From Pseudomonadales bacterium (GTDB taxonomy: Bacteria > Pseudomonadota > Gammaproteobacteria > Pseudomonadales > UBA7239), in contig JAXMGN010000001.1 in the NCBI GenBank assembly GCA_046347205.1, positions 750,035 to 814,034 on the forward strand: a DNA stretch of 64,000 nt. Direction: 5' to 3'. Each line of letters starts with the position of its first letter. Position 1 is the stretch's first letter. The notes under the pieces were generated by a model. That model was not told the origin of the DNA. It saw nothing but the letters and a program-made list of their open reading frames with translations, and searched no databases. Of the stretch, positions 12,935 to 61,671 are shown piece after piece. The position numbers and the translations under genes were made by a program.

Positions 12935-12985
12935 TGGATGCCGCTATACTGCGCGTAAACCTATTTGTTGATGGTGCAATCCGTG

Positions 12986-14524
12986 ATGCGCAACTCCCAC
13001 CGTTTTTTTCTCGCTCTCTGCCTGCTATTTTTTGGTATTACTGCTGCGGTGCAAGCTGCACCTGATGACAAAGATGGCGATCGCCTCAGCGATGCATTGG
13101 AACAAACCGTGGGACGTAACCCAGAGCGCCCTGATTATCTCATCAGCACCGGCTATCGCCGCAGTTGTGCGCTGGATGACAGCGGCGTGCAGTGTTGGGG
13201 CGATGAACCGCGCATGGGTATCACGCCCGGATTTAGTCACCCGTTTGTACTCAGTGTTAGCAATACCCACGCCTGCGTGATTGGTGACAACGGCGTGCAA
13301 TGTTGGGGCGACAACACGCACGGCGAAACCACTGTGCCGCCACTCAACAAACCGGAAGCCGTGAGTGCCGGTTGGTATCACAGTTGTGCCGTTGATGCGA
13401 AAGGCGTGAAGTGTTGGGGCGATAACAGTCGCGGCCAATTGGATGTGCCGAAAAAATTAAAAAATGTAAAACAAATTGCCGCGGGTGGATTTCACACCTG
13501 TGCGTTGGATGAAAAAGGTGTGACCTGTTGGGGCGATAACTGGGCGCATCAATTGGATGTGCCGGCGTTGGTGAATCCACATCAAATTACATCAGGCAAT
13601 CATCACAGTTGCGCCTTGGATGATCGCGGTGTCGTGTGTTGGGGTGATATTTATTTTGATGAAACCGAACGCAATCCCGATGTGATGAAAAATTATAAAA
13701 CACGCGTGGTGCCATTGCTGCAAAATCCGCGACAAGTCAGCGCCGGTTTCGATCACACTTGCGCAGTGGATGACAGCGGCGTGGTGTGTTGGGGTGCGCG
13801 CGATCGCGGGCAGTCCGATCCACCGAAAGATTTATTAAAACCACCGGTGGCAGCGATCAGCGCGGGTTGGTACAGCACTTGTGCACTGGATGCGGTCGGC
13901 GTGAAATGTTGGGGCGACAACACCAATAAACAAACCGAAGTGCCGCCTTTGTTTTTTGATGCGGATCGCGATGGCATTCCCGACGACAAAGACAATTGCC
14001 CACATATCGCCAATCCGGATCAGCTGGACACCGACAAAGATGGACAAGGTGACGCCTGCGATCCTGATGACGATAACGACGGCGTAGCCGATGATTTGGA
14101 TAATTGCCCATTAGTGGCCAATCCAGACCAAAAAGATAGCGATGGCGATAAAGTGGGCGACGCTTGCGATGCTTTTCCCAATGATCCGACAGAGTGGTCT
14201 GACAGGGACGGCGACGGTGTCGGTGACAACCGCGACAACTGTCCTGATGTCGCCAATCCCGATCAAAAAGATACGGATGGCGATAAAATTGGCGATGCCT
14301 GTGACACCGATAACGACAATGACGGTGTGCCAGACGACAAAGACAATTGCCCTCTGGTTGCGAATCGCGATCAAAAAGATACTGACAAAGATGGGATGGG
14401 CGATGCTTGTGACGACGACGATGACAACGACGGCATTCCCGATAAGCAAGATAAAGAGCCGTTAAAACCGGCGAAAAAGAAAGCACCGACAAAAACAGCA
14501 GCAAAAATCGGTGTGTCGCAGTAA
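12986..14524 (+). CDS. secreted protein with RCC1-like beta-propeller repeats and C-terminal thrombospondin type-3 (calcium-binding) repeats
   Basis: Signal peptide is [26 protein letters not shown]. There are seven repeats centred on V.CWGDN..GQ..VP with HSCAL/HTCAL strands, an RCC1/ATS1-like pattern. Repeated D.D.DG..D..DNCP...N.DQ.D.D.D..GD.CD units follow. Upstream alternative starts exist at 12965 and 12971. Confidence 0.8.
13958..14452 (+). repeat. intragenic tandem coding repeats (TSP type-3 units)
   Basis: Units recur at DNA level, for example gacaattgccc...gccaatcc.gatcaaaaagata..gatggcgataaa.t.ggcgatgc.tg.ga. They encode the DNCPxxANPDQKDxDGDKxGDACD repeats. Confidence 0.8.
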
Positions 14525-14537
14525 CAAAAAAATAGCA

Positions 14538-16406
14538 TTAAAAAAAACTGCGCAGGGAGATCAGAAACTGGTCGCGTTGCGCAGCATACGTTTCCTGATG
14601 TGCGTATGAAAAATAAACCGACAGATCGCGCGTCAAGCGATAGCCCGCTTCTGTTTGAAAAGTCGTGAGCTTGTCGCTGTCATTGATTAAATAATATTGC
14701 TGACTCATATCGGCAGACCAACTCCAATACGGCGTTTGATACAGCAAGCCCGCGCGTGCGCCGGCGCGCATATCCCAAGCGTGATCGAGCGCGCTACCCG
14801 TGAGTGCGCCGCCGATAATTTCTGCATGACACAACAGGTTGCCACAGTTTTTGGTGATGCCGCGATAACCTTCGGCAATATTGACCAGTGATGTTTTCTC
14901 GTGAATCAACTCGCGTTGCCGCGCTGCTGACAGCCCCCACGAAGCATCTTGAAAAAAAACATCGGAAGGATTGTAAGACTGCACAGCAAACCAGCGTATG
15001 CGATCGAGACTGACGCGATCATCGTGTTGATACGGGTCTAGTCGCAGTTGAAAATCCAGCACTTCCAATTGCACGCCTTTTTGAAAGGCGGGCAGCGGAT
15101 CGTGAAAATCGTGATAGGCAAAACGCCCGCCAAGAACAAGATAATCTTTGCCGCTATCGTGCTGCCAACCCGTTTGTAAACGCAGCATGTCGTGCCCATC
15201 GGTGGTGGGTTCCGCTGCTGTGATAGGCGTTTTTACTGCTGGCACGGAGTTTTTTATTTGATACTGGTGCTGCACAAGTTGGTTCACTTGTAAATTGTGT
15301 GGCGCTTTTTTTGCAGGGTCTACTTGCACTTGAATACTGCGGTAATTTTCTGCCAGTGCCAACACTGTGCTGTCGTTAACATTGTCCAGTGTCGCAGGAG
15401 TTTTTAGCAGTTTTTTGAATGCTACTTGTTGTGAAGGCGTGAGCTGCGCCAGTTGTGCGTAAAAACGCTTTCTGGCGGAGGGAATGTATTGTGTATTAGC
15501 AATCAAGCCCTGTGCTTGCAATGCTTTGACGGTATCAACAGGAATAGTATGAGTGGTAAATTGTGTGCGTAAGTTATGCGTCGGTGTGATGACATCCAAC
15601 AAGGAAATTAAACGGTAAGAGCAATTTTCATCGAGAAAAAAATAATTGAAGCTGCTACCGCGTACCTCCCACACATGATCGACAAACAGGCGAACTTTTT
15701 CTGGCGTGAATGTAAGACGGTATTCGCGTATGTCGCGGTCTTGGTCGTCGCTGTAAGCGCGCAATTTTTCAAAGTAAGGTGCCAAATCAATAATGCCAGG
15801 AAAATGCCCAGTCAAACCTTTGGCGATATAGCGCACGGTACTGTTGTCTGCAGCGCCCACGTCAGCGTAGTAACTGATGGTTTGTGACAGTAATACGGGG
15901 TGAGTATTTTTGTCACGTGCGTCGATGCGCAAAAAGGTATGCCCGAAAATAGAGGCAATTTTTTTTAGATAAGGATCTGGGTACACCAGTGTAATTTCTT
16001 CGGCAGAAAAACGGCTGCGCCAGTAATCCAGAGCAGAGCAGTGCAGATTTTCTGGTTTGTGCAGAGAAAAATATTGTGTCAAAAACTGCGCGCGCGCTGG
16101 AAAACGACACCAAGCGCTGCCATTCCCTTCAATGGGTGAACGCAATGCCTGTAGTGTGGCATTCAGTTCTGCTTCACTGTCGTCTTTCTTGCCAGAAAGA
16201 AAAAAATCTTTAGCATCCACTTCGCTGTGATAAGTGCCGGTGAGCGCATTTTTTTGCATATGCAGCAGAGCCAACCATTGCGGTGCAGTAGCCAAGGACG
16301 CAAGAGCAGTCGGCGGCATCGTGCTTGCCTGTACGCGCGCACAACACAGCAAGCCCGGCGCAGCGCAAGCAAGGTATAGGCAGAATACGGTGAGGCAATG
16401 GCGCAT
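14538..16406 (-). CDS. DUF4105 (Lnb N-terminal periplasmic domain) family protein
   Basis: The block IFGHTFLRID...ISYYADV...YIAKGLTGHFPG...FFLDENCSYRL matches my recollection of DUF4105. I chose the ATG at 16406 (MRHCLTVFCLYLACAAPGLLCCARVQA, signal-like) over the GTG at 16451. Confidence 0.65.
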   Translation of the reverse strand: MRHCLTVFCLYLACAAPGLLCCARVQASTMPPTALASLATAPQWLALLHMQKNALTGTYHSEVDAKDFFLSGKKDDSEAELNATLQALRSPIEGNGSAWCRFPARAQFLTQYFSLHKPENLHCSALDYWRSRFSAEEITLVYPDPYLKKIASIFGHTFLRIDARDKNTHPVLLSQTISYYADVGAADNSTVRYIAKGLTGHFPGIIDLAPYFEKLRAYSDDQDRDIREYRLTFTPEKVRLFVDHVWEVRGSSFNYFFLDENCSYRLISLLDVITPTHNLRTQFTTHTIPVDTVKALQAQGLIANTQYIPSARKRFYAQLAQLTPSQQVAFKKLLKTPATLDNVNDSTVLALAENYRSIQVQVDPAKKAPHNLQVNQLVQHQYQIKNSVPAVKTPITAAEPTTDGHDMLRLQTGWQHDSGKDYLVLGGRFAYHDFHDPLPAFQKGVQLEVLDFQLRLDPYQHDDRVSLDRIRWFAVQSYNPSDVFFQDASWGLSAARQRELIHEKTSLVNIAEGYRGITKNCGNLLCHAEIIGGALTGSALDHAWDMRAGARAGLLYQTPYWSWSADMSQQYYLINDSDKLTTFQTEAGYRLTRDLSVYFSYAHQETYAAQRDQFLISLRSFF

Positions 16407-16469
16407 AAAGAATTGACAGAAAACACGAAGGCAGTATTGTAGCGATAACACAGCTTATGCAGAGATGTT

Positions 16470-16877
16470 ATGCGGCTTCATGGTTTTTTTCGTGCAATAG
16501 GGCTGCTGTGTGCAGGCGTGGCATCTTCTGCCGTAGCAGATAACTGTGTGTTGCGCCCCCTTGCCGAATCCATGCAGCGGCCCGCTGTGCGCGCCGATGA
16601 ACCGCAGCACACAGAATGGGAATACCGCCGCCAACTCCTGCGTTTTGCCAACGGTTTTTACGGTGCAATCTCACAAGATATTTTGCGTGGCAACGGAGAA
16701 TATTTACAAACTTTGCAGCAATTGATGGGTTCAGAAGGTGAGCCGTGTGTGCCTATGTACCGTCAGCTGTTGCTGCAAGAACCCAGCAGCCAAGATTTTG
16801 CTCTAGCGCTGTGGTCGTGGCGCATAAACCACGGTGCTAACACTGCGCCAGCGCAGGATTGGGGCAGCGTGCATTAG
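16470..16877 (+). CDS. hypothetical secreted protein
   Basis: 135 aa with signal peptide MRLHGFFRAIGLLCAGVASSAVA/DN. It is divergent from the DUF4105 gene. The segment RGNGEYLQTLQQLMG faintly recalls DUF3015, which is not enough for a call. Confidence 0.45.
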   Translation: MRLHGFFRAIGLLCAGVASSAVADNCVLRPLAESMQRPAVRADEPQHTEWEYRRQLLRFANGFYGAISQDILRGNGEYLQTLQQLMGSEGEPCVPMYRQLLLQEPSSQDFALALWSWRINHGANTAPAQDWGSVH

Positions 16878-16942
16878 CTCCATAGGCAAGCTATGAATAG
16901 GTGTGATAAGTTTCAAACCAATCATCAGAAAAAGGTTGTTTT

Positions 16943-17425
16943 ATGCCAGTGCAGTACGGAACCAAACGCAGAGTGCCGCCAACGAAAGTGCTGAATGGAA
17001 AGGCGGCGTTAGCTTATGTGGATGATGTCGCCATCATGATTACCACCATCGAAAAATGGACAGACAAAGACATTGTGCAATTAATGGAAGAGAGCGCGCG
17101 TCTGGGCAAGCGCGTTACTGCGCCGGCGGCGATTACGCATTTTATGGGCGAGACTTTGGGCGCAGCGGCTTCACAGCGCAAGTTAGTGGTGGACTGGATG
17201 GCGACCAATAATATCGACCCTACGCCGCGCACCATCACCATGACCGATTCTGCCTTGATACGCGCCGCGTTGACGGCGTATTCGTGGCTCACCAAAACCG
17301 AGATGAAAGCGTTCGCGCAAAAAGATTTGCTGACTGGATGTCAGTGGTTAGTGCGCGATTTAGAGACAAAACCTGAGGATGTTTTACAAGCTGTGCAGGG
17401 CTGTTACAAGTTATTAGGCAAATAA
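16943..17425 (+). CDS. uncharacterised ~160-aa protein, paralog 1 of 3
   Basis: Shares with the next two ORFs the blocks GKA..A.V.DV..I...I.KW, QRKL...W, R.ITM.DS.LIR..LTAYSWLTKTE.KAFA.KD and LLGK. Confidence 0.7.
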   Translation: MPVQYGTKRRVPPTKVLNGKAALAYVDDVAIMITTIEKWTDKDIVQLMEESARLGKRVTAPAAITHFMGETLGAAASQRKLVVDWMATNNIDPTPRTITMTDSALIRAALTAYSWLTKTEMKAFAQKDLLTGCQWLVRDLETKPEDVLQAVQGCYKLLGK

Positions 17426-17439
17426 AGCAGGTAACAATT

Positions 17440-17925
17440 ATGTCCAGTTATGATTATTCCAAGACAGTGGTTAAACCCACCTTGCTACTAAAAGGTAAAG
17501 CTTGTTTTGCACAGGTACATGATGTCACGTTGATCGTTAGTGATATTCCAAAATGGAGCAATGAGTTGGTGCTGGAATATCTCAATGGCATGATAAAAAT
17601 TGGCGGCGGTGTGTCTGTTCCTGCTAGCGCCGCCATTTTTTTGGGCGATAGCTTTGATGCCGGGCAGCGCAAATTGTCTGCAGACTGGATTGCCGAGAAC
17701 GGGTTTGAGCCGGCAAAACGCATCACCATGATTTCGGATTCGCTGTTAATTCGCGGCTCGTTAACAGCGTATTCGTGGTTGACGAAAACCGAAGCCAAAG
17801 CATTCGCCATGAAAGATCACGCGGCTATGTGCGATTGGATAGCTAGGGGAAGAATAGCTAAAGCAGAGGATATTCACGCGGCACTACTGGCATCTTTCCA
17901 GTTGCTAGGAAAGAAGTTGCCGTAA
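17440..17925 (+). CDS. uncharacterised ~160-aa protein, paralog 2 of 3
   Basis: 161 aa. The start lies 14 nt after paralog 1. By eye it is roughly three quarters identical to paralog 3. Confidence 0.7.
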   Translation: MSSYDYSKTVVKPTLLLKGKACFAQVHDVTLIVSDIPKWSNELVLEYLNGMIKIGGGVSVPASAAIFLGDSFDAGQRKLSADWIAENGFEPAKRITMISDSLLIRGSLTAYSWLTKTEAKAFAMKDHAAMCDWIARGRIAKAEDIHAALLASFQLLGKKLP

Positions 17926-17999
17926 CATTGGCCATTGCGTAAAAAAACGTCTCAGACTGATCGAACAACGAAATAAAAAATGCTGGGGATATTCGAGAA

Positions 18000-18488
18000 A
18001 TGCTGAGTGACGCTGAATACAGCAAAATAGCGGTTAAACCCACCGCCCTGCTAAAAGGCAAGGCGTGCTTTGCGCAAATACATGATGTCACCATGATTGT
18101 CAGCACCATTCCCAAATGGAACGATGCGCTGGTGTTGGAGTATCTCAACGAAGTTACCAAAGTGGGCGGAGGCGTGTCTGTGCCAGCCAGTGTGGCGATT
18201 TTTTTGGGCGATGTGTTTGACGCAGGGCAGCGCAAATTGGCGACAGAATGGACAACAGCTCAAGGATTTGAACCCGCAAAACGTATCACCATGATTTCTG
18301 ATTCCCTGCTCATTCGCGGCGCACTCACCGCGTATTCTTGGCTGACAAAAACTGAAGCAAAAGCATTTGCCATGAAAGACCATATGGCTATGTGCGAGTG
18401 GATTACACGCGACCGCATCGCCAAAGCACCTGATGTGCATGAAGCACTGGCAACGTCCTTTCATTTGCTGGGCAAAAAACTGGCATAA
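18000..18488 (+). CDS. uncharacterised ~160-aa protein, paralog 3 of 3
   Basis: 162 aa. Same conserved blocks as the other two copies. A strong terminator follows. Confidence 0.7.
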   Translation: MLSDAEYSKIAVKPTALLKGKACFAQIHDVTMIVSTIPKWNDALVLEYLNEVTKVGGGVSVPASVAIFLGDVFDAGQRKLATEWTTAQGFEPAKRITMISDSLLIRGALTAYSWLTKTEAKAFAMKDHMAMCEWITRDRIAKAPDVHEALATSFHLLGKKLA

Positions 18489-18520
18489 AAAAGCCGACGC
18501 GAAGTCGGCTTTTTTGTTTT
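18487..18520. terminator. bidirectional intrinsic terminator
   Basis: The sequence aaaaaaGCCGACgcgaaGTCGGCttttttgtttt lies between the convergent paralog-3 gene and the pterin-binding methyltransferase gene. Confidence 0.85.
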
Positions 18521-18539: not shown

Positions 18540-19472
18540 TCAGCTTTCGCTGTTTTCCGCTTTAGCTGCACGGCGCGCTTCGCGTTCGGCTTTTTTGCGA
18601 GCTTTTTCTTCTTCCTGCGCTTTCTGTTCAGCCAGGCGCGCTTTTTGGTCGTCGCTCATTGGGGTGAGCAGCAAGCCATCGCGGTGCGCTTGGATATACT
18701 TGCCGCATTTCTCGTCTTCACCCATCAGCGCGCGAATGGCGTAAATCATGGCGCGCATTTCTTTCACGCGTGGGTTAATCATGAAGCCTTCCATGCCATT
18801 CGCTGCGAGCATCGCTACATAAGTGCGGTTCATCAGTGCGCGGTGTGGCATGCCGAAGCTGACGTTAGACAAACCGCAGAAGGTGCGCACTTGTGGGAAT
18901 TCGGCTTTCATCATTTGCAATAAATCAAAACTGATGGGGCCCACGTTGTCGTCTGTGCCCAGCGGCAGAATGAGCGGATCAATCCACAAATTGTGATCGG
19001 GCACGCCTGCATCGCGCGATTTCGCCACCAATTCTTTGCAGATAGCAAAACGGCCTTTGGCGGTGTGGTTGATGCCGGTGTCATCCAACAACAGGGCCAC
19101 AATGCCAGTGTTGTATTTGGCAGCCAGCGGCAACAAGTTTTGCGCGCTGCCTTTTTTATTGTTGATGGAGCTGAGTACTGGGTACTGACCTTTCCAATCA
19201 ATCGTTTCCATTGCGTGTTTGAGCGCGGGTGGGTTGGAGCTATCCAACACCATCGGAATATTAGTGACAGCGCGCACGCTTTCAATCATCCACGGCAAGT
19301 CAATCAACTCGTCGCGGCCGGTCACTTGTGCATTGAGATCCAAATAATCGGAATCTGCTTCCACTTGCTCTAAAGCAACTTTTTGGATGTAAGCAGTGTC
19401 ATGCGCTTTTACCGCATCACAAATTGCAGGAATGGTGGCGTTCAATGATTCGCCGATAACAACAACGGCCAT
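18540..19472 (-). CDS. pterin-binding methyltransferase (methyl-corrinoid:tetrahydrofolate methyltransferase, MtgA/AcsE/MetH-pterin-domain-like)
   Basis: MAVVVIGESLNATI...YLDLNA...MVLDSSNP...ICGLSNVSFGMP-type blocks are characteristic of the pterin-binding (DHPS-like) TIM barrel. GGAGAA sits 5 nt before the ATG. It carries an unusual Lys/Glu/Ala-rich C-terminal tail. Confidence 0.8.
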   Translation of the reverse strand: MAVVVIGESLNATIPAICDAVKAHDTAYIQKVALEQVEADSDYLDLNAQVTGRDELIDLPWMIESVRAVTNIPMVLDSSNPPALKHAMETIDWKGQYPVLSSINNKKGSAQNLLPLAAKYNTGIVALLLDDTGINHTAKGRFAICKELVAKSRDAGVPDHNLWIDPLILPLGTDDNVGPISFDLLQMMKAEFPQVRTFCGLSNVSFGMPHRALMNRTYVAMLAANGMEGFMINPRVKEMRAMIYAIRALMGEDEKCGKYIQAHRDGLLLTPMSDDQKARLAEQKAQEEEKARKKAEREARRAAKAENSES

Positions 19473-19510
19473 ACGGTTCTCCGTTTTCTTAACAATAAAA
19501 AGTGATAATG

Positions 19511-19545
19511 AAAATAAAAAAGGCTTCTCTCAATAGAAAGAAGCC
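19511..19545 (-). terminator. intrinsic-terminator-like hairpin inside the operon (possible attenuator/processing site)
   Basis: The minus strand reads GGCTTCTttctattgagAGAAGCC followed by TTTTTTATTTT. It lies in the 89-nt gap between the MtmB-like and pterin-binding genes. Confidence 0.55.
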
Positions 19546-19561
19546 TCGCTGTGGTGTGAAC

Positions 19562-20950
19562 TTATTTCAGCGCTTTCAGACCCATGTCATACAGTTCTTG
19601 TTTGACACGGTTGTAGTCTTCCATCAACGCTGGTTTCGGTTCGCATTTTTCGCAATCGTAAGCATCTTTGAAGTGGCGCGGGCCAGCACCGCTGGCTTTG
19701 TGTTTCTCTGTTTCTTCGTTGCGTTTGGCGAAGATTTTGTTCATCAAAATGTCCGCTTCTTTGGGGTCTTGTACTTCCAAAGTCGCCTGCATCACTTCGC
19801 CAACCAAACGGGTTTCCAAACCGGAGTGACCGCCGATCCACACATAACCCATGCCGTTGATAGTGTTGGACACTGTCATCGCCTGCGCCTGCCAGATACC
19901 GGCGTAAGTGCGCCAGTACGGCTCCATGCCGGCACACACTGAAGCGATCGGTAGTTTGACGTGGCGTTCAAACGCGCGTGTGGCAGCAGCAACAGCCCAC
20001 TGCGTTTCTTGATCGGACCAAGTACCGTCCAAGTGGTTGGCGAACATTTGCGTCATGCCGCCGTGGCCATAAGACAACTGACCGAGGGCGTTGCACACAA
20101 TGCCGATGGCCGTCTCTGCGCCGTCACGACAAATGGCGCCGGTGAGCGATACGCAAGATGTCCACGGCTCAATACCGCGATCTTGGCAATATTTCGCCAT
20201 CATGAACGCGTTCCAGTCGATTTTCATTTCAGGAATGATGTGGATGCCGATTTGTGTGTTCCATGTTTTGCGGCGATCAGGATTGTGATCATCGATGCAC
20301 GCAAAAGAAGCGGCGGCAGACGATGCGGTGCACAACAAACCTTGGTGCATACCAGGGCGACCTTCTTCGCGACAGATGCGTTGAATCTGTGCGCATTCCC
20401 ACTGTGCGGCGTACATTTCAGACAATGTGCCCGCTTTGGCAGAGTGACCGTGGATCACTTCGATACCGCCGGTAATGCCCATCGCTTTATTGGTTTTTTC
20501 TTTTACGAAAGAACGGATGTACGGGTCGTGCCAATCTTCACCGATAACACCGCAAGGACCGCCGGCAAGAATTGGCAATTTTTTCTCGAACGCTTTACGG
20601 TAGGTGTATTCGATACGATCTGCGCCTTCACCAAACTTCGATACGCGCGGATTCGAGTTGTAGAACTCTGCCGTGTCGCGAATTTCCTGTTCGGTCAGCG
20701 CGATAACGCGAAACGTGTTGTTGTGATAAATGCCGCACTCTGCCAACAATTTAACCGCCGCGTTGAAAACGCCGTCAGCAATCTCGTCAGAAATGACAGT
20801 ACTGTCCGGCGTGTATTTCACACCGAACTCTTCAGCGGCTTTGCGCAAGGTGCGTGACCACTTGATGTCAAACTTGCTGGATTTTTCAAATACTTCGCCA
20901 GTTTCAGCGCGGTTTTGAAACTCCATAATATCCATTAATTTACCGGCCAT
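19562..20950 (-). CDS. MtmB (monomethylamine methyltransferase) family protein lacking pyrrolysine; substrate:corrinoid methyltransferase of unknown substrate
   Basis: Several blocks resemble my recollection of Methanosarcina MtmB: KLLAECGIY, EEGRPGMHQG (cf. AGRPGMGV-Pyl-G), GLETRLVGEVMQAT, and the C-terminal ...YNRVKQELYDMGL. The ORF is uninterrupted, with no in-frame TAG. The ATG at 20950 overlaps the corrinoid-protein stop (TAATG) and is preceded by GGAGAG, so the track start at 20992 is rejected. Confidence 0.75.
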   Translation of the reverse strand: MAGKLMDIMEFQNRAETGEVFEKSSKFDIKWSRTLRKAAEEFGVKYTPDSTVISDEIADGVFNAAVKLLAECGIYHNNTFRVIALTEQEIRDTAEFYNSNPRVSKFGEGADRIEYTYRKAFEKKLPILAGGPCGVIGEDWHDPYIRSFVKEKTNKAMGITGGIEVIHGHSAKAGTLSEMYAAQWECAQIQRICREEGRPGMHQGLLCTASSAAASFACIDDHNPDRRKTWNTQIGIHIIPEMKIDWNAFMMAKYCQDRGIEPWTSCVSLTGAICRDGAETAIGIVCNALGQLSYGHGGMTQMFANHLDGTWSDQETQWAVAAATRAFERHVKLPIASVCAGMEPYWRTYAGIWQAQAMTVSNTINGMGYVWIGGHSGLETRLVGEVMQATLEVQDPKEADILMNKIFAKRNEETEKHKASGAGPRHFKDAYDCEKCEPKPALMEDYNRVKQELYDMGLKALK

Positions 20951-21609
20951 TATGCTGCTCTCCCAAAGTGTGCTGCCATAATATTTTTGCAAAGTGTGAC
21001 GGCTTCCATCGCGTTAGGTGCCCAGCCATCAGCGCCCATCATGTTGGATTTTTCTTGATTGGTTTCTGCGCCGCCCATCACCACTTTGAATTGATCTTGC
21101 AGACCCATGTCGTGCACATAGTTCACAACATCGCGGCAGTTGGGGATGGTAGTGACCAAGAACGCCGACAAACCGATGATATTGGCTTTCTTTTCTTTGG
21201 CGGCGTTGATGAATGCCATGGAATCCACATTCACGCCCAGTTGATGCACTTCAAAACCAGCGAGTTCCAATTGCTTGGCGACCAGGCCGTAACCGATGTC
21301 GTGCAAATCGCCAGACACCGCGCCGATCACCACCACGCCTTGGCGCTCGCCATCAGACGATTTAGGCAAATGCGGGTTGATGATTTTGATGCAGTTTTCA
21401 GCGAGTTCACCGCCCACCATCAATTCTGCAAGAAAATATTCTTTGGCTTCAAACAACTGACCAATTTTTTCCAAACCTTTGACGACACCATCTTTTAGTA
21501 CAGACACCGGATCCAAACCTGCGTCCAGACATTCTTGTACCAACTCTGCCGCTTCGTCGTCGAGATCGGCAATCAGTTCGGCAATTTCTGCAATATCGTT
21601 TTGATCCAT
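20950..21609 (-). CDS. cobalamin-binding corrinoid protein (MtmC/MtgC-like)
   Basis: 219 aa. An N-terminal helical cap domain is followed by a Rossmann B12-binding domain. It carries the DxHxxG motif (GAVSGDLHDIGYGLV) and downstream S.L and GG motifs. Confidence 0.85.
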   Translation of the reverse strand: MDQNDIAEIAELIADLDDEAAELVQECLDAGLDPVSVLKDGVVKGLEKIGQLFEAKEYFLAELMVGGELAENCIKIINPHLPKSSDGERQGVVVIGAVSGDLHDIGYGLVAKQLELAGFEVHQLGVNVDSMAFINAAKEKKANIIGLSAFLVTTIPNCRDVVNYVHDMGLQDQFKVVMGGAETNQEKSNMMGADGWAPNAMEAVTLCKNIMAAHFGRAA

Positions 21610-21653
21610 GGTGCTCTCCTCAGTATGTAGTGCGTGGTAATTTTGTTGGTCGA

Positions 21654-23729
21654 TCAGGCTGCTGTGCGTTCGCGGCGGCGGCGGCGTGATTCGGTGTCCG
21701 GTGGCGCGGGCTGAATACCATAGCGCGCCAGCGACGGAAATGCATGTTTTTTGTGGGGCAACAGCGTGGCATCGACAAAGTGCGGGACAAAGCTCGTCTC
21801 GTTGGTCAGTTCCACATAGTGAATGCGGCGTGCGATGTGTTCGGCCTCTTCGCGTTTTGCGCGATTCATCAGTGCCATGCGCGCGCCATCACCGGCGGCA
21901 TTGCCCACCGAGTGTGTGTTTTCAAAGCCAACATCTTGGAACAAGCCAATCATCAGCGAGCGCCGCAGATCAATGTGCGAGCCGAAGGCACCGGCGAGGA
22001 TGACTTTTTCCGGCTTGTCGCGCCCCAGTTTATCGAGCAGCACTTGGATGCCGGAGTACACCGCGGCTTTTGCCAACTGCACATTGCGCACGTCGTCAAT
22101 GGTCATGGTGATGTCGCGACCGAGCGCGGTTTCATTTGCCCATGCAATCACAAATTCGGGATCGCCGTCTTCACCACGCCGCAAACGCGGCGTTTCTATT
22201 TCCATATTGAATTTGCCATTCGTGGCGAGAATACCTGCTTTGTATAACTCACCTACGGCGTCGATGATGCCAGAACCGCATAAACCAATTGCACCAATAT
22301 CAGTCGCTTCTAAACGCGTATTCCACGCTTCTTTACCGATAACCTTAAAACGCACGTCGTAATTTTTTTCCACGCGTACTTTTTCAATCGCACCGCGTGC
22401 GGCGCGCACGCCGTATTTGATATTGGCACCTTCCAATGCGGGCCCTGTGGGGCAAGACGTAGAATAAATTTTGTCGCGGTTGCCCACCAAAATTTCACCG
22501 TTGGTGCCGATGTCCACAATCGCTACCAAGTCATCCGAGTTGTAAGGTTCTAGCGCAATCGCCACAGCGGTATTATCCGCGCCGACAAATCCCGCTTGGT
22601 TGGCCAACAAATGCACATTGATAGATGGCAATACATTCGTTAAATGTAAATCGCGCGCTTTCACGTTTACAGAATGTGCGATGCGTGGATTGAACGGCGA
22701 CTTGCCGAGCGAATCAGGATCCAAGCCGAGAAAAATATGGTGCATACAGGTATTCGCCACCAGCACAATTTCACTGATGTCTTCCGCTGCATAACCAGCG
22801 GATTGCGTCACGCGATCCGCTAATTCGCTCAACGCACCGGTGACTGCTTTTTGCATGCGATCCAGTTTTTCTGGATTATCACTCGCAGCGATGCGGTTCA
22901 TCACGTCGTCGCCGCCAATGCGAATTTGCGGATTCATTAATGATTCTGTTGCCAGTGTTTCACCGGTGTGCATATCACACAAATACGAAGCCATGGTGGT
23001 GGTGCCGAGATCAACCGCCAAGCCCAACCACTGCTGTGTGGTGTCGCCATTTTCAATGCGAATAATTTCACCTGCTTGATTTATTTCAGGTGTCCACACG
23101 GTAGCGGTGAGCTGCATCACTTTTGCGCGCTGTGGTTTGGCGAGATCGCTCAATTGTTTCAACGCAGTGAAATCGATACGCGCATCAATACCGTGTTCAG
23201 CTTTGAGTGCATCGCGCAGGCGTTCGAAATCGCCGCGATGATCTGCCAGTGTTGGTGCTGGTACGGTAACAAAATATTTGCGCGTCACAGGATCGCGCAC
23301 CGCCACCGGTTTACCTGCCGCTTTGCGCACAATCGCTTCGCGCACGCGTGCTTCTTCGGGAACAAAAACCACCGCGTCGCCGAGTACGCGTGTTTGGCAA
23401 CTGAGCCGTTCGCTGGTTTTGTACTGGTGTTTGCGCGCCAGTTTTTGTTCGTGTTCGCTGGCCGGTGTGACGTGTGATTCACGCGAGCGCAGCCCGTGGC
23501 GTGTGGCGGCCGTGACCATATGCCCCATCGACAATTCATGGCCTTCGTCGTCAAAGGTACCGTCCAACACTTGGCATTTGCATTTGGCACAAGCGCCGGT
23601 GCCGCCACAAATGGATTCAATGCCCACGCCCAATTCACGCGCAGCGGTGAGCAGCGGCGTACCAGCGGCAAACTGCCCTTTCTGACCGGAGGGCAGAAAC
23701 AGCACATCGTATTTCTCAACGGCACTCAT
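21654..23729 (-). CDS. RACo-type reductive activator of corrinoid proteins ([2Fe-2S] ferredoxin domain + ASKHA ATPase)
   Basis: The N-terminus is a plant-type ferredoxin (SICGGTGACAKCKCQV). The long C-terminal part has actin/sugar-kinase-like phosphate motifs (LAVDLGTTT, VDIGTNGE). Size (691 aa) and architecture match RACo/COG3894 rather than the RamA 2x[4Fe-4S] type. Confidence 0.8.
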   Translation of the reverse strand: MSAVEKYDVLFLPSGQKGQFAAGTPLLTAARELGVGIESICGGTGACAKCKCQVLDGTFDDEGHELSMGHMVTAATRHGLRSRESHVTPASEHEQKLARKHQYKTSERLSCQTRVLGDAVVFVPEEARVREAIVRKAAGKPVAVRDPVTRKYFVTVPAPTLADHRGDFERLRDALKAEHGIDARIDFTALKQLSDLAKPQRAKVMQLTATVWTPEINQAGEIIRIENGDTTQQWLGLAVDLGTTTMASYLCDMHTGETLATESLMNPQIRIGGDDVMNRIAASDNPEKLDRMQKAVTGALSELADRVTQSAGYAAEDISEIVLVANTCMHHIFLGLDPDSLGKSPFNPRIAHSVNVKARDLHLTNVLPSINVHLLANQAGFVGADNTAVAIALEPYNSDDLVAIVDIGTNGEILVGNRDKIYSTSCPTGPALEGANIKYGVRAARGAIEKVRVEKNYDVRFKVIGKEAWNTRLEATDIGAIGLCGSGIIDAVGELYKAGILATNGKFNMEIETPRLRRGEDGDPEFVIAWANETALGRDITMTIDDVRNVQLAKAAVYSGIQVLLDKLGRDKPEKVILAGAFGSHIDLRRSLMIGLFQDVGFENTHSVGNAAGDGARMALMNRAKREEAEHIARRIHYVELTNETSFVPHFVDATLLPHKKHAFPSLARYGIQPAPPDTESRRRRRERTAA

Positions 23730-24364
23730 GCCATTTCTCCCGTGCCGAGCATATGGCGCGCCACACGCTTCAACTCTTGTTTGTAGGTGTCTAGCCGCGC
23801 CACGGTTTCGCTATTGGCCAGTAGGGGCGCATCCATAATGAAGAACATCGACGCGCCGGCGAGAATCGACCAGAACTGCACGGGGTCGATGGCGCGGAAG
23901 GCGTTACTGCGACGACCTTCATCCAAAGTGCCGATCAAACGGGCAAACATGGGGTCGACAAACTGCTGCACCTCAGGGCGCAAACCGCCCTCGGAGCCAG
24001 CCACTTCGCGCATAAAAAGGCGCATCAGGGTGGGGCGCGCGCCTGCGAAGTCCAACCACGCTTCCACGGCTGCTTCTACACGGGCGGGCAGGTCGAGCGA
24101 GGAATCCAGCGCCGCGCTGATGCGGTCATTGAGCTGGGCAAATAGCCTCTCCAATACTGCGTTGTACAGCGTTTCTTTGTCTTGAAAATGATAGATCACT
24201 GCCGTGCGCGTAATGCCTACGTCTTCGGCGATGTCTTCTAAACGCGTGGGGTAAAAGCCGGTGGCGGCAAAGCGCAGCTCCGCCGCGCCGAGTATCAACT
24301 CGCGTGTTTCGTCCGCCTTAAGGGTAGTGCGGCGGGGGAGTGGGGCTACAGAACTTACTGACAT
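23726..24364 (-). CDS. TetR/AcrR family transcriptional regulator
   Basis: The N-terminal HTH reads ILGAAELRFAATGFYPTRLEDIAEDVGITRTAVIYHFQDKETLY. Its stop overlaps the start of the activase gene by 4 nt. Confidence 0.85.
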   Translation of the reverse strand: MSVSSVAPLPRRTTLKADETRELILGAAELRFAATGFYPTRLEDIAEDVGITRTAVIYHFQDKETLYNAVLERLFAQLNDRISAALDSSLDLPARVEAAVEAWLDFAGARPTLMRLFMREVAGSEGGLRPEVQQFVDPMFARLIGTLDEGRRSNAFRAIDPVQFWSILAGASMFFIMDAPLLANSETVARLDTYKQELKRVARHMLGTGEMA

Positions 24365-24372
24365 GCAAGTAG

Positions 24373-24388
24373 CTTACTCATGAGTAAG
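24373..24388. promoter_or_regulatory. perfect 16-bp palindrome, candidate TetR operator
   Basis: CTTACTCA|TGAGTAAG lies 9 nt upstream of the tetR ATG. On the minus strand it sits between a TTGCAA (-35, 24399-24394) and a TAAGCT (-10, 24376-24371) spaced 17 nt apart. A third half-site, CAGTAAG, lies at 24353-24360 inside the first codons. Confidence 0.5.
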
Positions 24389-24424
24389 TTTTGTTGCAAC
24401 TGGCGGAAGTGGATGAAAACGAGG

Positions 24425-39062: not shown

Positions 39063-39473
39063 TTAGTTGGGTAAATCAAATTGCACGGTGGCGCTGGTTT
39101 TTACGGCGGTGTCTGAGCTGAGGGTGATGGTAGCAGTGATGCGCTGCTGATCTTTGGCAGTGATTTCGCCGCGCACAATCATGGCATCACCAGGGCAGAA
39201 AGAATCTTTCATGCGAAAAGACATGTTGCGGATATCTGCTGCCGTACCCGCCCAATCCGTGATGTATTTTGTAATCCAACCGGCTTGTGAAGGCGAGTTG
39301 AGAATAATGCCGCGCAAGCCCGCCTTGGTCGCCGCTTCGTGATCGTGATGGATAGGTTGCCAATCGCGCGTAGCGGCGGCGGCGCTGATAATTTTTTGTG
39401 CCGATAGAGTGATATGCAATTCGGGAAGGGTATCGCCAATTTGTACCGCAGCAGCCGTGAGCGCAGCCATCAT
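39063..39473 (-). CDS. MaoC-like (R)-hydratase hotdog-fold protein
   Basis: 136 aa with a hydratase-2-like motif RDWQPIHHDHEAA. It is coupled to the upstream N-terminal-type subunit. Confidence 0.75.
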   Translation of the reverse strand: MMAALTAAAVQIGDTLPELHITLSAQKIISAAAATRDWQPIHHDHEAATKAGLRGIILNSPSQAGWITKYITDWAGTAADIRNMSFRMKDSFCPGDAMIVRGEITAKDQQRITATITLSSDTAVKTSATVQFDLPN

Positions 39474-39958
39474 CAGCTCCTGTTGTAGCCAAAAAAGTTT
39501 AGCGTTTCTACGCCGGCAATTTCATCGCGCTGATTTTTATAAGTGACATCAATCACCCAATTGCGGCCTGTGCCCAATTTATTGGTTTTGATGTCGCTCA
39601 CTTCGCGCAGTGATTGCTCGGCGCGCAGGCGATCGCCGACGCGCACCGGCACACCAAATTCAAACGACAATTCCACCACCACGCCGCGCGGCAATTGCAA
39701 TAAATCTTTCACGCGAAAATGCAATTCCAGTGGGCGATTGGCGGGTTTATCGCCGCGCGCCGGTGTCCACGGATGCGGGCGGTTGTAAGCACTCAACATG
39801 CCTGGTGGCGAAATGCCTTCCTGCCAATAGCGCGGGTTGCCGTCTTCCACGGCGGAGCAAAAGTTTTCGATCAGCGCTTGCTCGACGGCAACTTCCGCCT
39901 CATCGACAACAACGACTTGGCCTATCCACGCTTGAATTTGCTGCGGCAGATCCGACAC
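39473..39958 (-). CDS. MaoC dehydratase N-terminal-like (FAS1-type) hotdog-fold protein
   Basis: 161 aa with FCSAVEDGNPRYW. Its position between an acyl-CoA dehydrogenase and a MaoC subunit suggests a heteromeric hydratase. Confidence 0.7.
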   Translation of the reverse strand: MSDLPQQIQAWIGQVVVVDEAEVAVEQALIENFCSAVEDGNPRYWQEGISPPGMLSAYNRPHPWTPARGDKPANRPLELHFRVKDLLQLPRGVVVELSFEFGVPVRVGDRLRAEQSLREVSDIKTNKLGTGRNWVIDVTYKNQRDEIAGVETLNFFGYNRS

Positions 39959-39960
39959 GC

Positions 39961-41151
39961 TTACATCACCAGCGGCAATTCAAGACCGCGGCGTGCGATG
40001 ATATTTTTTTGCACTTCTGAAGTGCCGCCGCCGATGGTGTCCAGCGCGGTAGCGCGCAGCGAATGCTCCCATTTGCCGTGGCAGGGCGCGTGCTCCACAC
40101 CTTCGTGCAGCATACTAGAAGGGCCGAGAATATCGAGTGCAGCATTGGCGAGGCGTTGACCGAGTTGTGTGCTGTACAACTTGCACATTGCGGCTTCCAC
40201 CGTAGGTACGCCACCTTTTACGGCGGCAGCGATGACGCGGCGCTGCAACATCACCGCCGTTTCTAAATCGGTGCTGAATTGCGCGACCAGTTTGCGCACT
40301 TGCGGATCATTTTTCAGCGGCTGACCGTCACGCGTTTCCTGTTTAATCATGTCGATAAAGACTTCAAACTTTTTCTGCAAAGGGCCAACGGTGTACAGCG
40401 TGAAGCGTTCGTAATCGAGTGCTTCACAAATATAAATCCAGCCTTTGTTTAACTCGCCGACTAGCGCGTCTTCCGGCACAAACACATCATCAAAAAACAC
40501 TTCATTGGTGCGGTGGTCGCCCATGGTTTTGATTTCACGCACGGTGATGCCAGCGGAATGCATCGGAATCAAAAATAGGGAAATGCCTTTATGCTTTGCT
40601 GCTTCAAAGTCGGTGCGCGCGGCCAGCCAGTACCACTCGGCAAAATGCGCCGAAGTATTGAAGATTTTTTGACCGTTGACTTTCCAACCGCCATCCACTT
40701 TTTCCGCTTTCAGTTTCAGCGAGGCGAGATCGGAACCGGCGCCCGGCTCGGAATAGCCTAGGCAGAACTCGATATCCGCATTCAAAATTTGCGGCAGAAA
40801 TTCTTGTTTCTGTTTTTCGGAGCCGTGGCGAATCAGGGTTTTGCCCACGCAGCCCACGCCTTTGCCAATCAAGGGCGCACCCACTGAAGCCAGTTCTTCG
40901 TTGACGAGGTATTCAAAAATCCCTTCTTTGGCTTGGCCGCCGTATTCCACCGGCCAGCTCATGCCGAGGAAGCGTTTGGCGGCGAGCTGTTTGTTGAAGG
41001 TGCGGCGCTCAGGGCTGTCGGCCAGCATGGAATCGGCCTCGCGATCGGGGCTCATCACTTCTTTGGCGTAGGGCTTTTTCGCTTCGTCAGCGAGGAAGCT
41101 GCGAATATTGCCGATGAATTGTTGCTGTTCGGGGCTGAATTCGAAGTCCAC
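39961..41151 (-). CDS. acyl-CoA dehydrogenase
   Basis: 396 aa with FCLGYSEPGAGSDLASL, the C-terminal GGGTSEVQKNIIAR motif and an ACAD fold pattern. Confidence 0.9.
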   Translation of the reverse strand: MDFEFSPEQQQFIGNIRSFLADEAKKPYAKEVMSPDREADSMLADSPERRTFNKQLAAKRFLGMSWPVEYGGQAKEGIFEYLVNEELASVGAPLIGKGVGCVGKTLIRHGSEKQKQEFLPQILNADIEFCLGYSEPGAGSDLASLKLKAEKVDGGWKVNGQKIFNTSAHFAEWYWLAARTDFEAAKHKGISLFLIPMHSAGITVREIKTMGDHRTNEVFFDDVFVPEDALVGELNKGWIYICEALDYERFTLYTVGPLQKKFEVFIDMIKQETRDGQPLKNDPQVRKLVAQFSTDLETAVMLQRRVIAAAVKGGVPTVEAAMCKLYSTQLGQRLANAALDILGPSSMLHEGVEHAPCHGKWEHSLRATALDTIGGGTSEVQKNIIARRGLELPLVM

Positions 41152-48348: not shown

Positions 48349-48419
48349 GTGAACCTCAATGCATTGAAAAGAGTGAATGCGTTTGAGGAGGGATACGGAA
48401 CAGGTGAGGCATCCTGCAC

Positions 48420-48655
48420 ACCAGCCGGATGAAGCCCTCCGCTCATCGTAGCTAACGGGAATTGGATTCCCTGGTGTTGCAGGTCGGTCTCCGGGCTCAC
48501 AGGTGGTTGAGATCAACCGCGTCAGCGCCTTCCCATGCATGCACAGTGGCGTATTGCTGACGTTTACCTGTTTACCGTTGCGGGGGCAGCGTTGGGATGA
48601 TCGCAAGCGATGGCACCAACTTCCCATTTCACCAGCGACCAGAAAGATCGCCGGA
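48420..48655 (-). promoter_or_regulatory. cobalamin (AdoCbl) riboswitch in the btuB leader
   Basis: The minus strand reads GGTGAAATGGGAAGTTGGTGCCA ... GCTGCCCCCGCAACGGTAA ... CCACTG ... GGGAAGG ... B12 box GAGCCCGGAGACCGACCTGC (48500-48479). Downstream, CCTCAA ... TTGAGG can sequester the SD (TGAGGT) 6 nt before the ATG at 48348. Confidence 0.85.
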
Positions 48656-48693
48656 ACCTGTAACAGCGCGCGCACTGTAGACGGGTTGGGCGC

Positions 48694-49683: not shown

Positions 49684-50599
49684 AAAAAAAATAAAAAATA
49701 GCGTAGAGAAAAACCCACAGCCATGCGCTGTGCCGCACCAAACGCAAAGCACGTTCTATATCGAAAGCTGTCGGCGTTCTTCCTTCACCCATGAGTATTT
49801 TTTCTTTGACAATGCCGTGATAAACCGCTGCGCCGCCGAGCGTAATTTGCAATGCGCCGGCACCAGCTGTCATCACTACGCCGCCGTTAGGGCTTTCACA
49901 CAGTGACGCTTGTGCATGCCAACAATGCCATGCGCGTTGCGCGTTGCCGAGCAGAGAAAAAGTAATGGCGGTGAGGCGTGCGGGCAGCCAATTTAATACA
50001 TCGTCAAACTTGGCGGCAAAATAACCAAAGTGCAAATAGTGTGCGGTTTTATAGCCCCACATGGCATCCAATGTATTGGCAGCGCGCAACAGCACTGCGC
50101 CAGGGGCGCCAAAAACAAAAAACCAAAACAAGGTGGCGAATACCGCGTCATTGCCGTTTTCCAAAACAGATTCGATGGTCGCGCGCGTGATCTGTGTTTC
50201 GTTCATGGTTTGTGTGTCGCGGCTGACGATCATTGCCACCGCTTGTCGCGCTGCGGCGAGATCACCTGCAAATAATGGTGTGGCCACGGCGCGCGCGTGT
50301 TGGTGTAGGCTTTGTAAACCTAGGCAGCCGTACAGAATGATGATAGAAAAAATACTGCCGACCACCGGTAGCGCGCTGAGTACCCATGCCGCCAGCGTTA
50401 CAGGAATCATCAAAACCATCGCCGCCATAAAACCGCGCCATTGGCTTTTAACAAACGAACATTCCGCTGCGCCATAAAAAAAATGTTCTGCGCGCGTGAC
50501 GCACTGACCAAACAGCGCGAGTGGATGCCAGCGTTTAGGCTCGCCAAAAATTTTATCGAGCAGCAAGGCCAGCAGCGGCGCAAAAAAACTTAACGCCAT
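49676..50599 (-). CDS. cbiB: adenosylcobinamide-phosphate synthase
   Basis: [19 protein letters not shown] and the polytopic membrane pattern are typical of CbiB. Confidence 0.9.
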
Positions 50600-51686: not shown

Positions 51687-51700
51687 AAAAATTGCTCAGT

Positions 51701-57350: not shown

Positions 57351-57356
57351 CGCAAT

Positions 57357-60902: not shown

Positions 60903-60903
60903 G

Positions 60904-61659: not shown

Positions 61660-61671
61660 GTGAGCCCCCTG

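Follow-up and report, generated by a model that had tools for sequence, protein, structure and literature searches.

Two enzyme systems, EmtAB (described in 2020) and AbeABC (2025), are the only ones known to interconvert estrogens and androgens without oxygen. EmtAB, which methylates estradiol at C-10 with the help of cobalamin, is known from Denitratisoma sp. DHT3, where EmtA (B9N43_10325) is its catalytic subunit, and from D. oestradiolicum (10.1101/714501; Jacoby et al., PMC7448270). AbeABC of Phosphitispora sp. TUW77 converts 1-dehydrotestosterone to estradiol by demethylation and passes the methyl group to tetrahydrofolate (THF; Wang et al., PMC11912376). Both are regarded as rare and as restricted in their hosts, the first to denitrifying estrogen degraders that methylate and have no methyl-corrinoid:THF methyltransferase (MT2), the second to one fastidious Firmicute that demethylates and has MT2 together with the Wood–Ljungdahl pathway. 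The subject of this report is an operon in a 64,000-nucleotide stretch of a Pseudomonadales genome (GCA_046347205.1, contig JAXMGN010000001.1, positions 750,035 to 814,034; hereafter the window), on the minus strand of which the open reading frame (ORF) map and the sequence give five co-directional genes for a TetR regulator, a RACo-type reductive activase, a corrinoid protein (CoP), a substrate-specific methyltransferase (MT1) and MT2. The locus very probably encodes a THF-linked, three-component system of the EmtA/AbeA lineage. We place at roughly 0.5 the probability of the fuller reading, in which it is a TetR-controlled, self-contained cobalamin methyl-transfer module of Abe-type form with a steroid 1,4-dien-3-one as its substrate.

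All four catalytic parts of the operon have homologues, similarly clustered, in AbeABC and RACo of strain TUW77. The original prediction, made from the sequence of the window, held that no characterised system has this composition, and on this point it has to be corrected; the locus of EmtAB, with TetR, RACo, CoP and MT1, also speaks against it. Clusters homologous to the operon, with published substrates, thus exist, but at only 34–57% identity they are not identical to it. The pairwise values for the Abe proteins are 34% for MT1 (AbeA), 57% for CoP (AbeB), 34% for MT2 (AbeC) and 37% for the TUW77 RACo. AbeA and the window MT1 have in common a glycine at the pyrrolysine (Pyl) position and the 11-residue signature described below, and the predicted direction, from the substrate methyl group through cobalt to THF, is the same.

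The two systems differ in several respects. The abe genes belong to a Firmicute that lives strictly anaerobically and has an oxidative Wood–Ljungdahl pathway, whereas the window comes from a member of the Pseudomonadales/Cellvibrionales and shows no genes of that pathway. The abe locus (L023; loci are designated by L numbers and individual MT1 relatives by P numbers) runs OYE/FAD, RACo, SDR, SDR, AbeC (MT2), AbeB, AbeA, OYE, ETF. Its core order is therefore MT2-CoP-MT1, against CoP-MT1-MT2 in the window, and it lies amid OYE/FAD, short-chain dehydrogenase/reductase (SDR) and ETF genes, none of which accompany the window operon. In addition, the abe locus has no TetR gene, while the window operon is headed by one, and the window MT2 has a charged tail of some 40 aa that is missing there. 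The chemistry and the parts list are already known; the host, the regulation, the mobility of the cassette, the missing steroid redox partners and the MT2 tail are new.

EmtA is the closest characterised MT1 (38% pairwise identity), and the CoP and RACo are similar to their counterparts in the emt locus (55% to EmtB and 49% to the Denitratisoma RACo). A TetR gene is again present, and the host is likewise a wastewater proteobacterium. The emt locus (L020) is ordered TetR, PfkB, RACo, a gene resembling the activation domain of MetH and, further on, EmtD, EmtC, EmtB, EmtA, SHMT and MetH, with no separate MT2. Emt methylates with S-adenosylmethionine (SAM) as the donor, and EmtC (102 aa), the luciferase-like EmtD, the activation-domain-like protein, SHMT and MetH of its locus have no counterparts in the window. 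Homologues of EmtC, EmtD and the activation-domain-like protein are missing from the loci of the window clade as well, apart from an activation-domain-like gene in L031. Because MT2 is present and EmtC and EmtD are absent, we do not class the operon, on its gene content, as Emt-type. Denitratisoma sp. DHT3 also differs in being without most of the anaerobic B12 biosynthesis genes, whereas the window encodes a B12 cluster. Wang et al. described the proteobacterial carriers of EmtA/AbeA as having no MT2 (PMC11912376); judged by its genes, the window clade is an exception. Our literature searches found no paper describing a gammaproteobacterial, MT2-bearing form of the system.

The gene assignments and junctions are those originally described. 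The TetR stop and RACo start overlap by 4 nt (ATGA), 44 nt lie between RACo and CoP, the CoP stop overlaps the MT1 start (TAATG), which is preceded by the Shine–Dalgarno sequence GGGAGAG, and 89 nt separate MT1 from MT2. Pfam and NCBIfam profile searches returned every domain that had been predicted, that is, TetR, RACo, B12-binding, MtmB and pterin-binding, and these uphold a three-component logic of MT1, CoP and MT2 served by an ATP-dependent reductive activase. The assignment of the 462-aa MT1 to the MtmB rather than the MttB scaffold also stands, since residues 6–458 align with positions 1–450 of the 450 in the PF05369 model (E 9e-38). No NCBIfam model, including the MtmB-type one, matched this protein. 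Its alignment with Methanosarcina barkeri MtmB (PDB 1L2Q) is full length yet weak (E 2e-24, about 25% identity), Gly204 stands opposite Pyl202, and the ORF runs through unbroken by any in-frame amber codon. Aligned over its full length to both Pfam and PDB entries, the protein already has its fold settled.

The CoP is a predicted cobalamin binder, with a B12-binding_2 cap (PF02607), a Rossmann B12-binding domain (PF02310) and the DxHxxG His-on motif as GDLHDIGYG; its best NCBIfam models, MtgC and MtbC, both score under their cutoffs. The RACo protein has a [2Fe-2S] ferredoxin (CGGTGACAKC) at its N-terminus, which a linker and a middle domain connect to an ASKHA ATPase (DLGTTT, DIGTNGE). It matches RACo_C_ter with E 8e-86, an AcsV-like model with 414 bits and the RACo of PDB 3ZYY with E 3e-103, and it ends in an Arg-rich tail (RRRRRERTAA). 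MT2 scores 261.9 bits against PRK07535 (cutoff 259) and contains the motif GLSNVSFG; its best solved relative is PDB 4O0Q (E 5e-42), with MeTr/AcsE at E 1e-32. Its C-terminal tail is rich in Lys, Glu and Ala (…DDQKARLAEQKAQEEEKARKKAEREARRAAK…), and the tail sequence is kept throughout the window clade but not in AbeC. The best solved relatives of TetR (2HYT, RutR and TtgR) are generic.

A homologue search with MT1 gave 123 relatives, among them EmtA (P0065) and two AbeA paralogues of strain TUW77 (P0115 and P0116). EmtA matches with E 5e-103, against the E 2e-24 of Pyl-containing MtmB. An uncharacterised sister group, of which L017 is the type, is closer still, at 50% pairwise identity for MT1 and 67% for its corrinoid protein. 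The Pyl column is glycine in all 116 lineage members, and the window clade retains 89 of the 104 columns that are conserved at 90% or more across the lineage. Eleven positions (W184, G204, N231, Q233, H237, W246, W263, S265, Y294, R329 and W371) form a signature, WGNQHWWSYRW, which the window clade shares unchanged with EmtA, both of these AbeA paralogues and nearly all sampled kin, the exceptions within the lineage being P0121 and P0063 with a single substitution each. About 115 other representatives of the superfamily deviate from it, with a stepwise loss in the nearer outgroups and absence beyond them. An exhaustive HMMER search of 1.84 billion representatives yielded only 368 clusters of the MtmB superfamily, of which 27 scored E <= 1e-30.

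In a neighbour-joining tree of 41 MT1 sequences (Kimura distances, rooted on M. barkeri MtmB), the window clade fell within the group defined by the most recent common ancestor of AbeA and EmtA, as sister to the P0015/P0030/P0038/P0039 group and, where AbeA and EmtA part, on the side of EmtA; all three placements recurred in 200 of 200 bootstraps. In the phylogeny against archaeal Pyl-MtmB that had been proposed for this protein, carried out here by neighbour joining, the implied kinship with methylamine enzymes gives way to a position inside the EmtA/AbeA clade. A first neighbour-joining tree, rooted only on M. barkeri MtmB, had placed the clade as sister to all other hits; this basal placement disappeared with denser outgroups, and we treat it as a long-branch or rooting effect.

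Scanning metagenomes with the family alignment recovered 76 loci, which were profiled by tblastn and are of four types. Emt-type loci have TetR, RACo, EmtC, CoP and MT1 but no MT2. In the uncharacterised Abe-type loci (L041, L043, L057, L049 and L073) CoP, MT1 and MT2 are adjacent, as in the window operon, with MT1 36–42% and MT2 38–43% identical to its proteins; their neighbours are two KstD-like flavoproteins and two OYE-like reductases together with SDRs, a setting in which the window clade is never found. In the sister group (L017 and L035) CoP and MT1 are followed by two KstD genes. The window clade (L029–L034, L001–L016 and L024) has CoP-MT1-MT2, usually with TetR and RACo ahead. Steroid ring-A redox genes are present in L017, L035, L041, L043, L049, L057, L064, L073, L082, L089 and the abe locus. 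L041, L043, L057 and L049 lie on the EmtA side of the lineage, and L073 is not resolved in that subtree. Because loci with an MT2 are found on the AbeA side of the split as well as on the EmtA side, the THF-linked form is widespread and the Emt type looks derived.

MT2 follows MT1 directly in every window-clade locus that is long enough, and the CoP-MT1-MT2 trio is kept in every sufficiently complete related locus from Pseudomonadales/Cellvibrionales metagenome-assembled genomes (MAGs) or metagenomes; the arrangement is therefore not due to chance. RACo is adjacent in the window, L001, L005, L006, L008–L010, L029, L031, L032 and L034 and unlinked in L002, L003 and L024. Among its relatives the operon behaves as a self-contained unit at unrelated chromosomal sites, and the GC content is even throughout the window locus. 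Its flanks offer no clue to the substrate, being the housekeeping genes pcnB, folK, panB, PEPCK and spoT; nor do the contexts of L002 (beside mutY/AsmA), L024 (in a restriction–modification/Fic island) or L004 (with an AAA_21/DUF4276 insert). In L004 (5462–9155) the defence-system-like AAA_21 ATPase/DUF4276 pair stands between RACo and CoP together with a Sel1-repeat protein and an ORF of unknown kind. Two further loci show other architectures: in L026 (6648–11004) a tandem pair of MtmB-like genes precedes two SDRs, and L027 (4856–9458) has a URO-D-type (MtaA-like) gene and an FAD enzyme upstream of TetR, an EmtC-like gene, CoP and MT1. They suggest a third kind of MT2 partner in the lineage.

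The resemblance to methylamine systems goes less far. Methanosarcina MtmB, MtmC and RamA share with the operon a Pfam family, a full-length alignment and the logic of an MT1, a corrinoid protein and an ATP-dependent activase. MtmB differs in having pyrrolysine at position 202, where the window MT1 has glycine, and on this alignment we regard the latter as not a Pyl-MtmB. RamA carries two [4Fe-4S] clusters, unlike the [2Fe-2S] RACo. In Methanosarcina the part of MT2 falls to MtbA, a URO-D-type enzyme that acts on coenzyme M, whereas the window MT2 is pterin-binding, and tblastn found no URO-D homologue within the 64-kb window. The three-component corrinoid logic is also that of the chloromethane system CmuA/CmuB of aerobic methylotrophs and of the MtgB/MtgC/MtgA and O-demethylase systems of Desulfitobacterium and acetogens, in all of which a pterin-binding MT2 delivers the methyl group to THF, although their MT1 proteins belong to unrelated families (MtaA/URO-D-like, MttB-like or MtvB-like). 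CmuAB shows that corrinoid chemistry is workable in aerobes, with metF, folD and purU oxidising CH3-THF; the MetV-MetF-PurU genes of the clade relative L031, described below, bear comparison with these.

Another characterised system without pyrrolysine is MtqBC of Methanococcoides methylutens Q3c, in which an MtmB-superfamily demethylase works with a cognate corrinoid protein on tetramethylammonium and choline (Kashyap et al., 2026, PMC13044021). Compared by its description only, it differs in being archaeal, coenzyme M-linked and directed at quaternary amines (PMC13044021). Kashyap et al. reported a conserved pocket of Met, Cys and aromatic residues for MtqB, placed the MtqB clade near the Pyl-MtmBs and listed the proteobacterial non-Pyl MtmBs as of unknown function (PMC13044021).

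As to the direction of transfer, neither CH3-THF nor methylcobalamin supports estradiol methylation, and SAM is needed to drive the reaction; with CH3-THF virtually no estradiol is methylated in Denitratisoma extracts, an exergonic methylation by SAM being required (Jacoby et al., PMC7448270). In the extracts 1-dehydrotestosterone readily loses its methyl group to an acceptor bound to protein, the corrinoid protein (PMC7448270), and Wang et al. assign MT2 to the demethylating system (PMC11912376). Because CH3-THF cannot drive estrogen methylation, a THF-linked MT2 fits the demethylating direction, as in AbeABC. Two relatives add to this. On an 856-kb contig, L031 (84% identity) has four genes 3 kb downstream of MT2 (15100–18196), encoding a MetV-like protein (PF12225), a clostridial-type methylenetetrahydrofolate reductase (MTHFR), a protein of 276 aa with weak similarity to the activation domain of MetH, and PurU. 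The third of these shows 33–41% identity to an unannotated gene product encoded beside RACo in Emt-type loci (L020 3255–3947, L047, L052 and L056). L024 also has MetV-MTHFR downstream of MT2 (20539–21383), so that MetV-MetF lies 3–10 kb from MT2 in the two loci. A set of MetV, MTHFR and PurU would oxidise CH3-THF to formate, but it is only a pointer for the genome of the window, since the set is not in the window. Taken together, the presence of MT2, the inability of CH3-THF to drive estrogen methylation and the MetV-MetF-PurU genes in two relatives favour demethylation of the substrate to give CH3-THF, with good though not high confidence; transfer from substrate to cobalt to THF, as originally favoured, remains the more likely course.

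The mechanism that we propose is as follows. TetR would bind the palindrome CTTACTCnnGAGTAAG over the promoter and be released by the substrate or a related ligand. RACo, by means of its [2Fe-2S] cluster and ATP, would reduce inactive Co(II) on the CoP to Co(I), onto which MT1 would move the methyl group of the substrate to form CH3-Co(III). MT2 would then transfer this methyl group to THF, giving 5-methyl-THF for methionine/SAM synthesis or for oxidation to formate. The likeliest substrate would be the angular C-19 methyl group on C-10 of a steroid 1,4-dien-3-one, androstadienedione (ADD) or 1-dehydrotestosterone, and the product would have a phenolic A-ring, as in estrone or estradiol. We give this substrate an even chance because MT1 is nested between two characterised enzymes that act on the same methyl group, because the 11 signature residues are unchanged and the CoP and RACo are of Emt/Abe type, because most of the family, the sister group among them, has steroid ring-A redox genes beside MT1, and because androgens and sterol-degradation intermediates abound in the habitat.

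Several observations weigh against this reading. Queries for KstD-like, OYE, SDR, HSD and SnoaL proteins gave nothing significant by tblastn in the window or in any window-clade locus, and in none of at least four genomic contexts does the clade have the KstD, OYE or SDR neighbours that most other lineage members possess. There is no transporter in the window, and TetR resembles steroid-responsive regulators of the KstR type only as a member of the same family. Genes for the Wood–Ljungdahl pathway, MTHFR/MetVF and PurU are absent from the window, which covers only part of the genome. The host is probably aerobic, where Cob(I) chemistry needs explaining, and a hairpin between MT1 and MT2 means that coupled expression of MT2 is not assured. 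The placement trees are by neighbour joining rather than maximum likelihood and do not include MtqB, and with two characterised members in the lineage the bracketing hangs on two points. The window clade also lies on a long branch, and seven non-conservative changes (D54S, Q150K, G225N/D, A286C, S301Q, G392E and P459K) could mark a substrate shift, since the positions are otherwise highly conserved in the lineage. The branch, the replacements and the missing redox partners would all suit a neofunctionalised clade that uses the same machinery on something other than a steroid, sending the methyl group to THF as a source of C1 units or methionine; the substrate might, for example, be another cyclohexadienone or terpenoid-type quaternary C-methyl compound, or an O-, N- or S-methyl compound in activated sludge. 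A self-contained unit at unrelated sites is what would be expected of a stand-alone methyl-harvesting cassette, and MtqB shows that a non-Pyl MtmB homologue can have quite different substrates (PMC13044021). We nevertheless think this reading less likely than the steroid one: the unchanged signature includes the aromatic and His, Asn, Gln and Arg positions in which the lineage differs from the other members of the superfamily, the enzymes on either side of the clade act on the same steroid methyl, and no linked transporter or catabolic gene, nor any other positive pointer, indicates an alternative.

The tree could also be taken to favour operation in the Emt direction, with estrone or estradiol methylated at C-10 to androgens and 5-methyl-THF, through MT2, replacing SAM and feeding androgen degradation. 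The clade is on the EmtA side of the split, the RACo is closest to that of the emt locus, TetR heads the locus in both cases, and corrinoid methyl transfers are reversible in principle, EmtAB itself running backwards in extracts (PMC7448270). However, MT2-bearing loci occur on the EmtA side too, so that the side of the tree does not predict direction; CH3-THF is virtually inactive in estradiol methylation (PMC7448270), the Emt accessory proteins are absent and no androgen catabolic genes lie nearby, all of which makes this course improbable. Least probable of all, to the point of being very doubtful, is the N-demethylase implied by the original prediction, that is, a methylamine-, quaternary-amine- or osmolyte-type enzyme on the MtmB scaffold, like MtmBC, MtgBCA or MtqBC. 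The PF05369 membership of MT1, the sub-cutoff MtgC/MtbC matches of the CoP and the activity of MtqB on tetramethylammonium and choline (PMC13044021) point that way. Yet MT1 shares only about 25% identity with Pyl-MtmB but 38% with EmtA and 50% with a sister group in a steroid context, its signature residues are wholly unlike those of all non-lineage MtmB representatives, the CoP is 55–57% identical to EmtB/AbeB, MtqB was itself placed near the Pyl-MtmBs (PMC13044021), and neither a BCCT or ABC osmolyte transporter nor amine-related genes were found near the operon. The comparison with MtmBC and MtgBCA, and the amine and osmolyte tests proposed on its basis, were thus directed at the wrong sub-family, and the methylamine/osmolyte reading was set aside as the leading one for want of an NCBIfam match for MT1, for the low identity to Pyl-MtmB and for the unlike signature.

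If the steroid reading is right, wastewater bacteria could make endocrine-disrupting estrogens from androgens, and the MT1 gene and its operator would be molecular markers and a biosensor part. The locus represents a third configuration beside Emt and Abe, a compact, mobile, TetR-regulated cassette of MT1, CoP and MT2, with or without RACo, in Pseudomonadales/Cellvibrionales, which turns up repeatedly in metagenome assemblies, activated sludge being the source of at least one, and stands near a MetV-MetF-PurU module in two relatives. We suggest, tentatively, that activated-sludge gammaproteobacteria may take the C-19 methyl off the androgens or sterol-degradation intermediates (ADD) of their neighbours, harvest CH3-THF and excrete estrone or estradiol. 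The operon would then be an oxygen-independent and aromatase-independent estrogenesis cassette in common, probably aerobic or facultative gammaproteobacteria, with the methyl group leaving by MetVF/PurU-type oxidation or methionine synthesis and not by the Wood–Ljungdahl pathway. Were this true, it would constitute an unrecognised biological source of estrogen inside wastewater treatment plants and run counter to what has been assumed in print, namely that EmtA/AbeA carriers among the proteobacteria have no MT2 and are consumers of estrogens only. With a substrate of another kind, the clade would provide the first evidence of the EmtA/AbeA scaffold diversifying beyond steroids. With four soluble proteins, a defined candidate operator and a short list of candidate substrates, the system lends itself to direct testing.

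Table 1. Operon genes, candidate regulatory elements and neighbouring features in the window.
Feature	Position	Strand	Details
TetR-family regulator	23726-24364	-	212 aa; PF00440 (E 2e-9) and TetR_C_29
RACo-type ATP-dependent reductive activase	21654-23729	-	691 aa; Fer2, RACo_linker, Raco_middle and RACo_C_ter
CoP, EmtB/AbeB-like	20950-21609	-	219 aa; B12-binding_2 and B12-binding
MT1, non-pyrrolysine MtmB superfamily, EmtA/AbeA lineage	19562-20950	-	462 aa; PF05369; substrate-specific part
MT2, pterin-binding methyl-corrinoid:THF methyltransferase	18540-19472	-	310 aa; Pterin_bind, PRK07535
C-terminal tail of MT2	18540-18665	-	about 40 aa
Candidate -35 hexamer TTGCAA	24394-24399	-	read from sequence
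Candidate -10 element TAAGCT	24371-24376	-	17-nt spacer from -35
Candidate TetR operator	24373-24388		perfect 16-bp palindrome, CTTACTCA/TGAGTAAG; inverted-repeat search
Terminator-like hairpin	19520-19547	-	MT1-MT2 gap; 12 bp, loop 4, then UUUUUUAUUUU; -18.5 kcal/mol, z = -6.5
Promoter-like site TTGAGA-17-CATTAT	19505-19533		overlaps the MT1-MT2 hairpin
Bidirectional intrinsic terminator	18487-18515		A-run, GCCGAC/GUCGGC hairpin, U-run; 61-nt fold -18.5 kcal/mol, z = -2.8
Cobalamin biosynthesis/uptake cluster	46423-62199	-	early-cobalt-insertion type; 25 kb from operon
Cobalamin riboswitches (RF00174)	48465-48676 and 61964-62199		one precedes the TonB-dependent receptor gene
Tandem paralogous ORFs and signal-peptide-like ORF	16470-18488	+	three of about 160 aa, one of 135 aa
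RCC1-repeat/thrombospondin-type-3-repeat protein	12965-14524	+	519 aa
Lnb_N/DUF7843/DUF7840 protein	14538-16451	-	637 aa
Acyl-CoA dehydrogenase and two small MaoC-like ORFs	39063-41151	-	FAS1_DH_region, MaoC_dehydratas (annotation of L021)

The candidate operon promoter would give a leaderless TetR transcript starting at or next to the ATG. It scores under the cutoff that the promoter scanner applies; the block TTGCAx...TAAGCT...ATG is kept in eight loci, and the DNA further upstream cannot be aligned. The candidate operator, written CTTACTCnnGAGTAAG or CTTACTCATGAGTAAG, lies 9 nt upstream of the TetR ATG and overlaps the promoter spacer and the -10 element, with an extra half-site, CAGTAAGT, just within the TetR ORF. 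It is the sole match in the window at up to two mismatches, where 0.04 would be expected by chance, so that no further copies define a regulon there. Its arms are invariant and its centre variable in the eight aligned loci, and the palindrome is present in 13 loci. Where TetR and RACo are absent or separated it stands ahead of the CoP gene (L002 at 9211, L003 at 489 and the second copy of L004 at 9206), which ties the regulator to the methyltransferase genes. TetR is presumed to be a ligand-released autorepressor of the operon. In L004 the operator is doubled, with one copy for each half of the split module.

The hairpin between MT1 and MT2 may lower or uncouple the expression of MT2. It occurs only in the window and L001 and was rejected as a conserved regulatory element; in other relatives the spacer is either a plain 27–44 nt or holds GC-rich, multi-hairpin inserts. 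These REP-like inserts (fold z -4.4 to -5.6) make the spacer a hot spot and were seen in L002 (11390–11561), L003 (2603–2747), L004 (11390–11514), L006 (11363–11539), L024 (11384–11523) and L031 (11378–11502). The terminator that had been noted after MT2 is confirmed as a hairpin with a U-run, and it closes both the operon and the convergent ORF at 18000–18488.

Scanning one genome per species recovered 12 loci, every one of them in an uncultured Pseudomonadales/Cellvibrionales MAG, with MT1 81–97% identical. The closest, L001 (97%), is from a Pseudomonadales MAG, in agreement with the gammaproteobacterial host that had been proposed. An identical MT1 protein is recorded in 47 blocks of the public assembly collection, and one contig overlapping the window comes from an activated-sludge metagenome. 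The cobalamin cluster in the window encodes CbiX, CbiD, CbiG, five tetrapyrrole methylases, CbiA/CobB, CobD/CbiB, a CobC/D-like aminotransferase, CbtA and a TonB-dependent receptor, and because of it the host can be expected to make its own corrinoid. The 750-aa GTG ORF of the receptor overlaps a riboswitch and is therefore over-extended.

Three minor features of the neighbourhood deserve mention. The tandem paralogous ORFs (LTAYSWLTKTE(A/M)KAFA), with the signal-peptide-like ORF, converge on the operon terminator and have no Pfam match; they lie beside MT2 in L001, L005, L009, L011 and L012 and are absent where the module sits elsewhere. The acyl-CoA dehydrogenase and the MaoC-like ORFs that follow it are reminiscent in arrangement of the hydratase pairs for steroid or branched-chain side chains. 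The RCC1-repeat and Lnb_N proteins form an unusual adjacent pair, which is kept beside the operon in its closest relatives.

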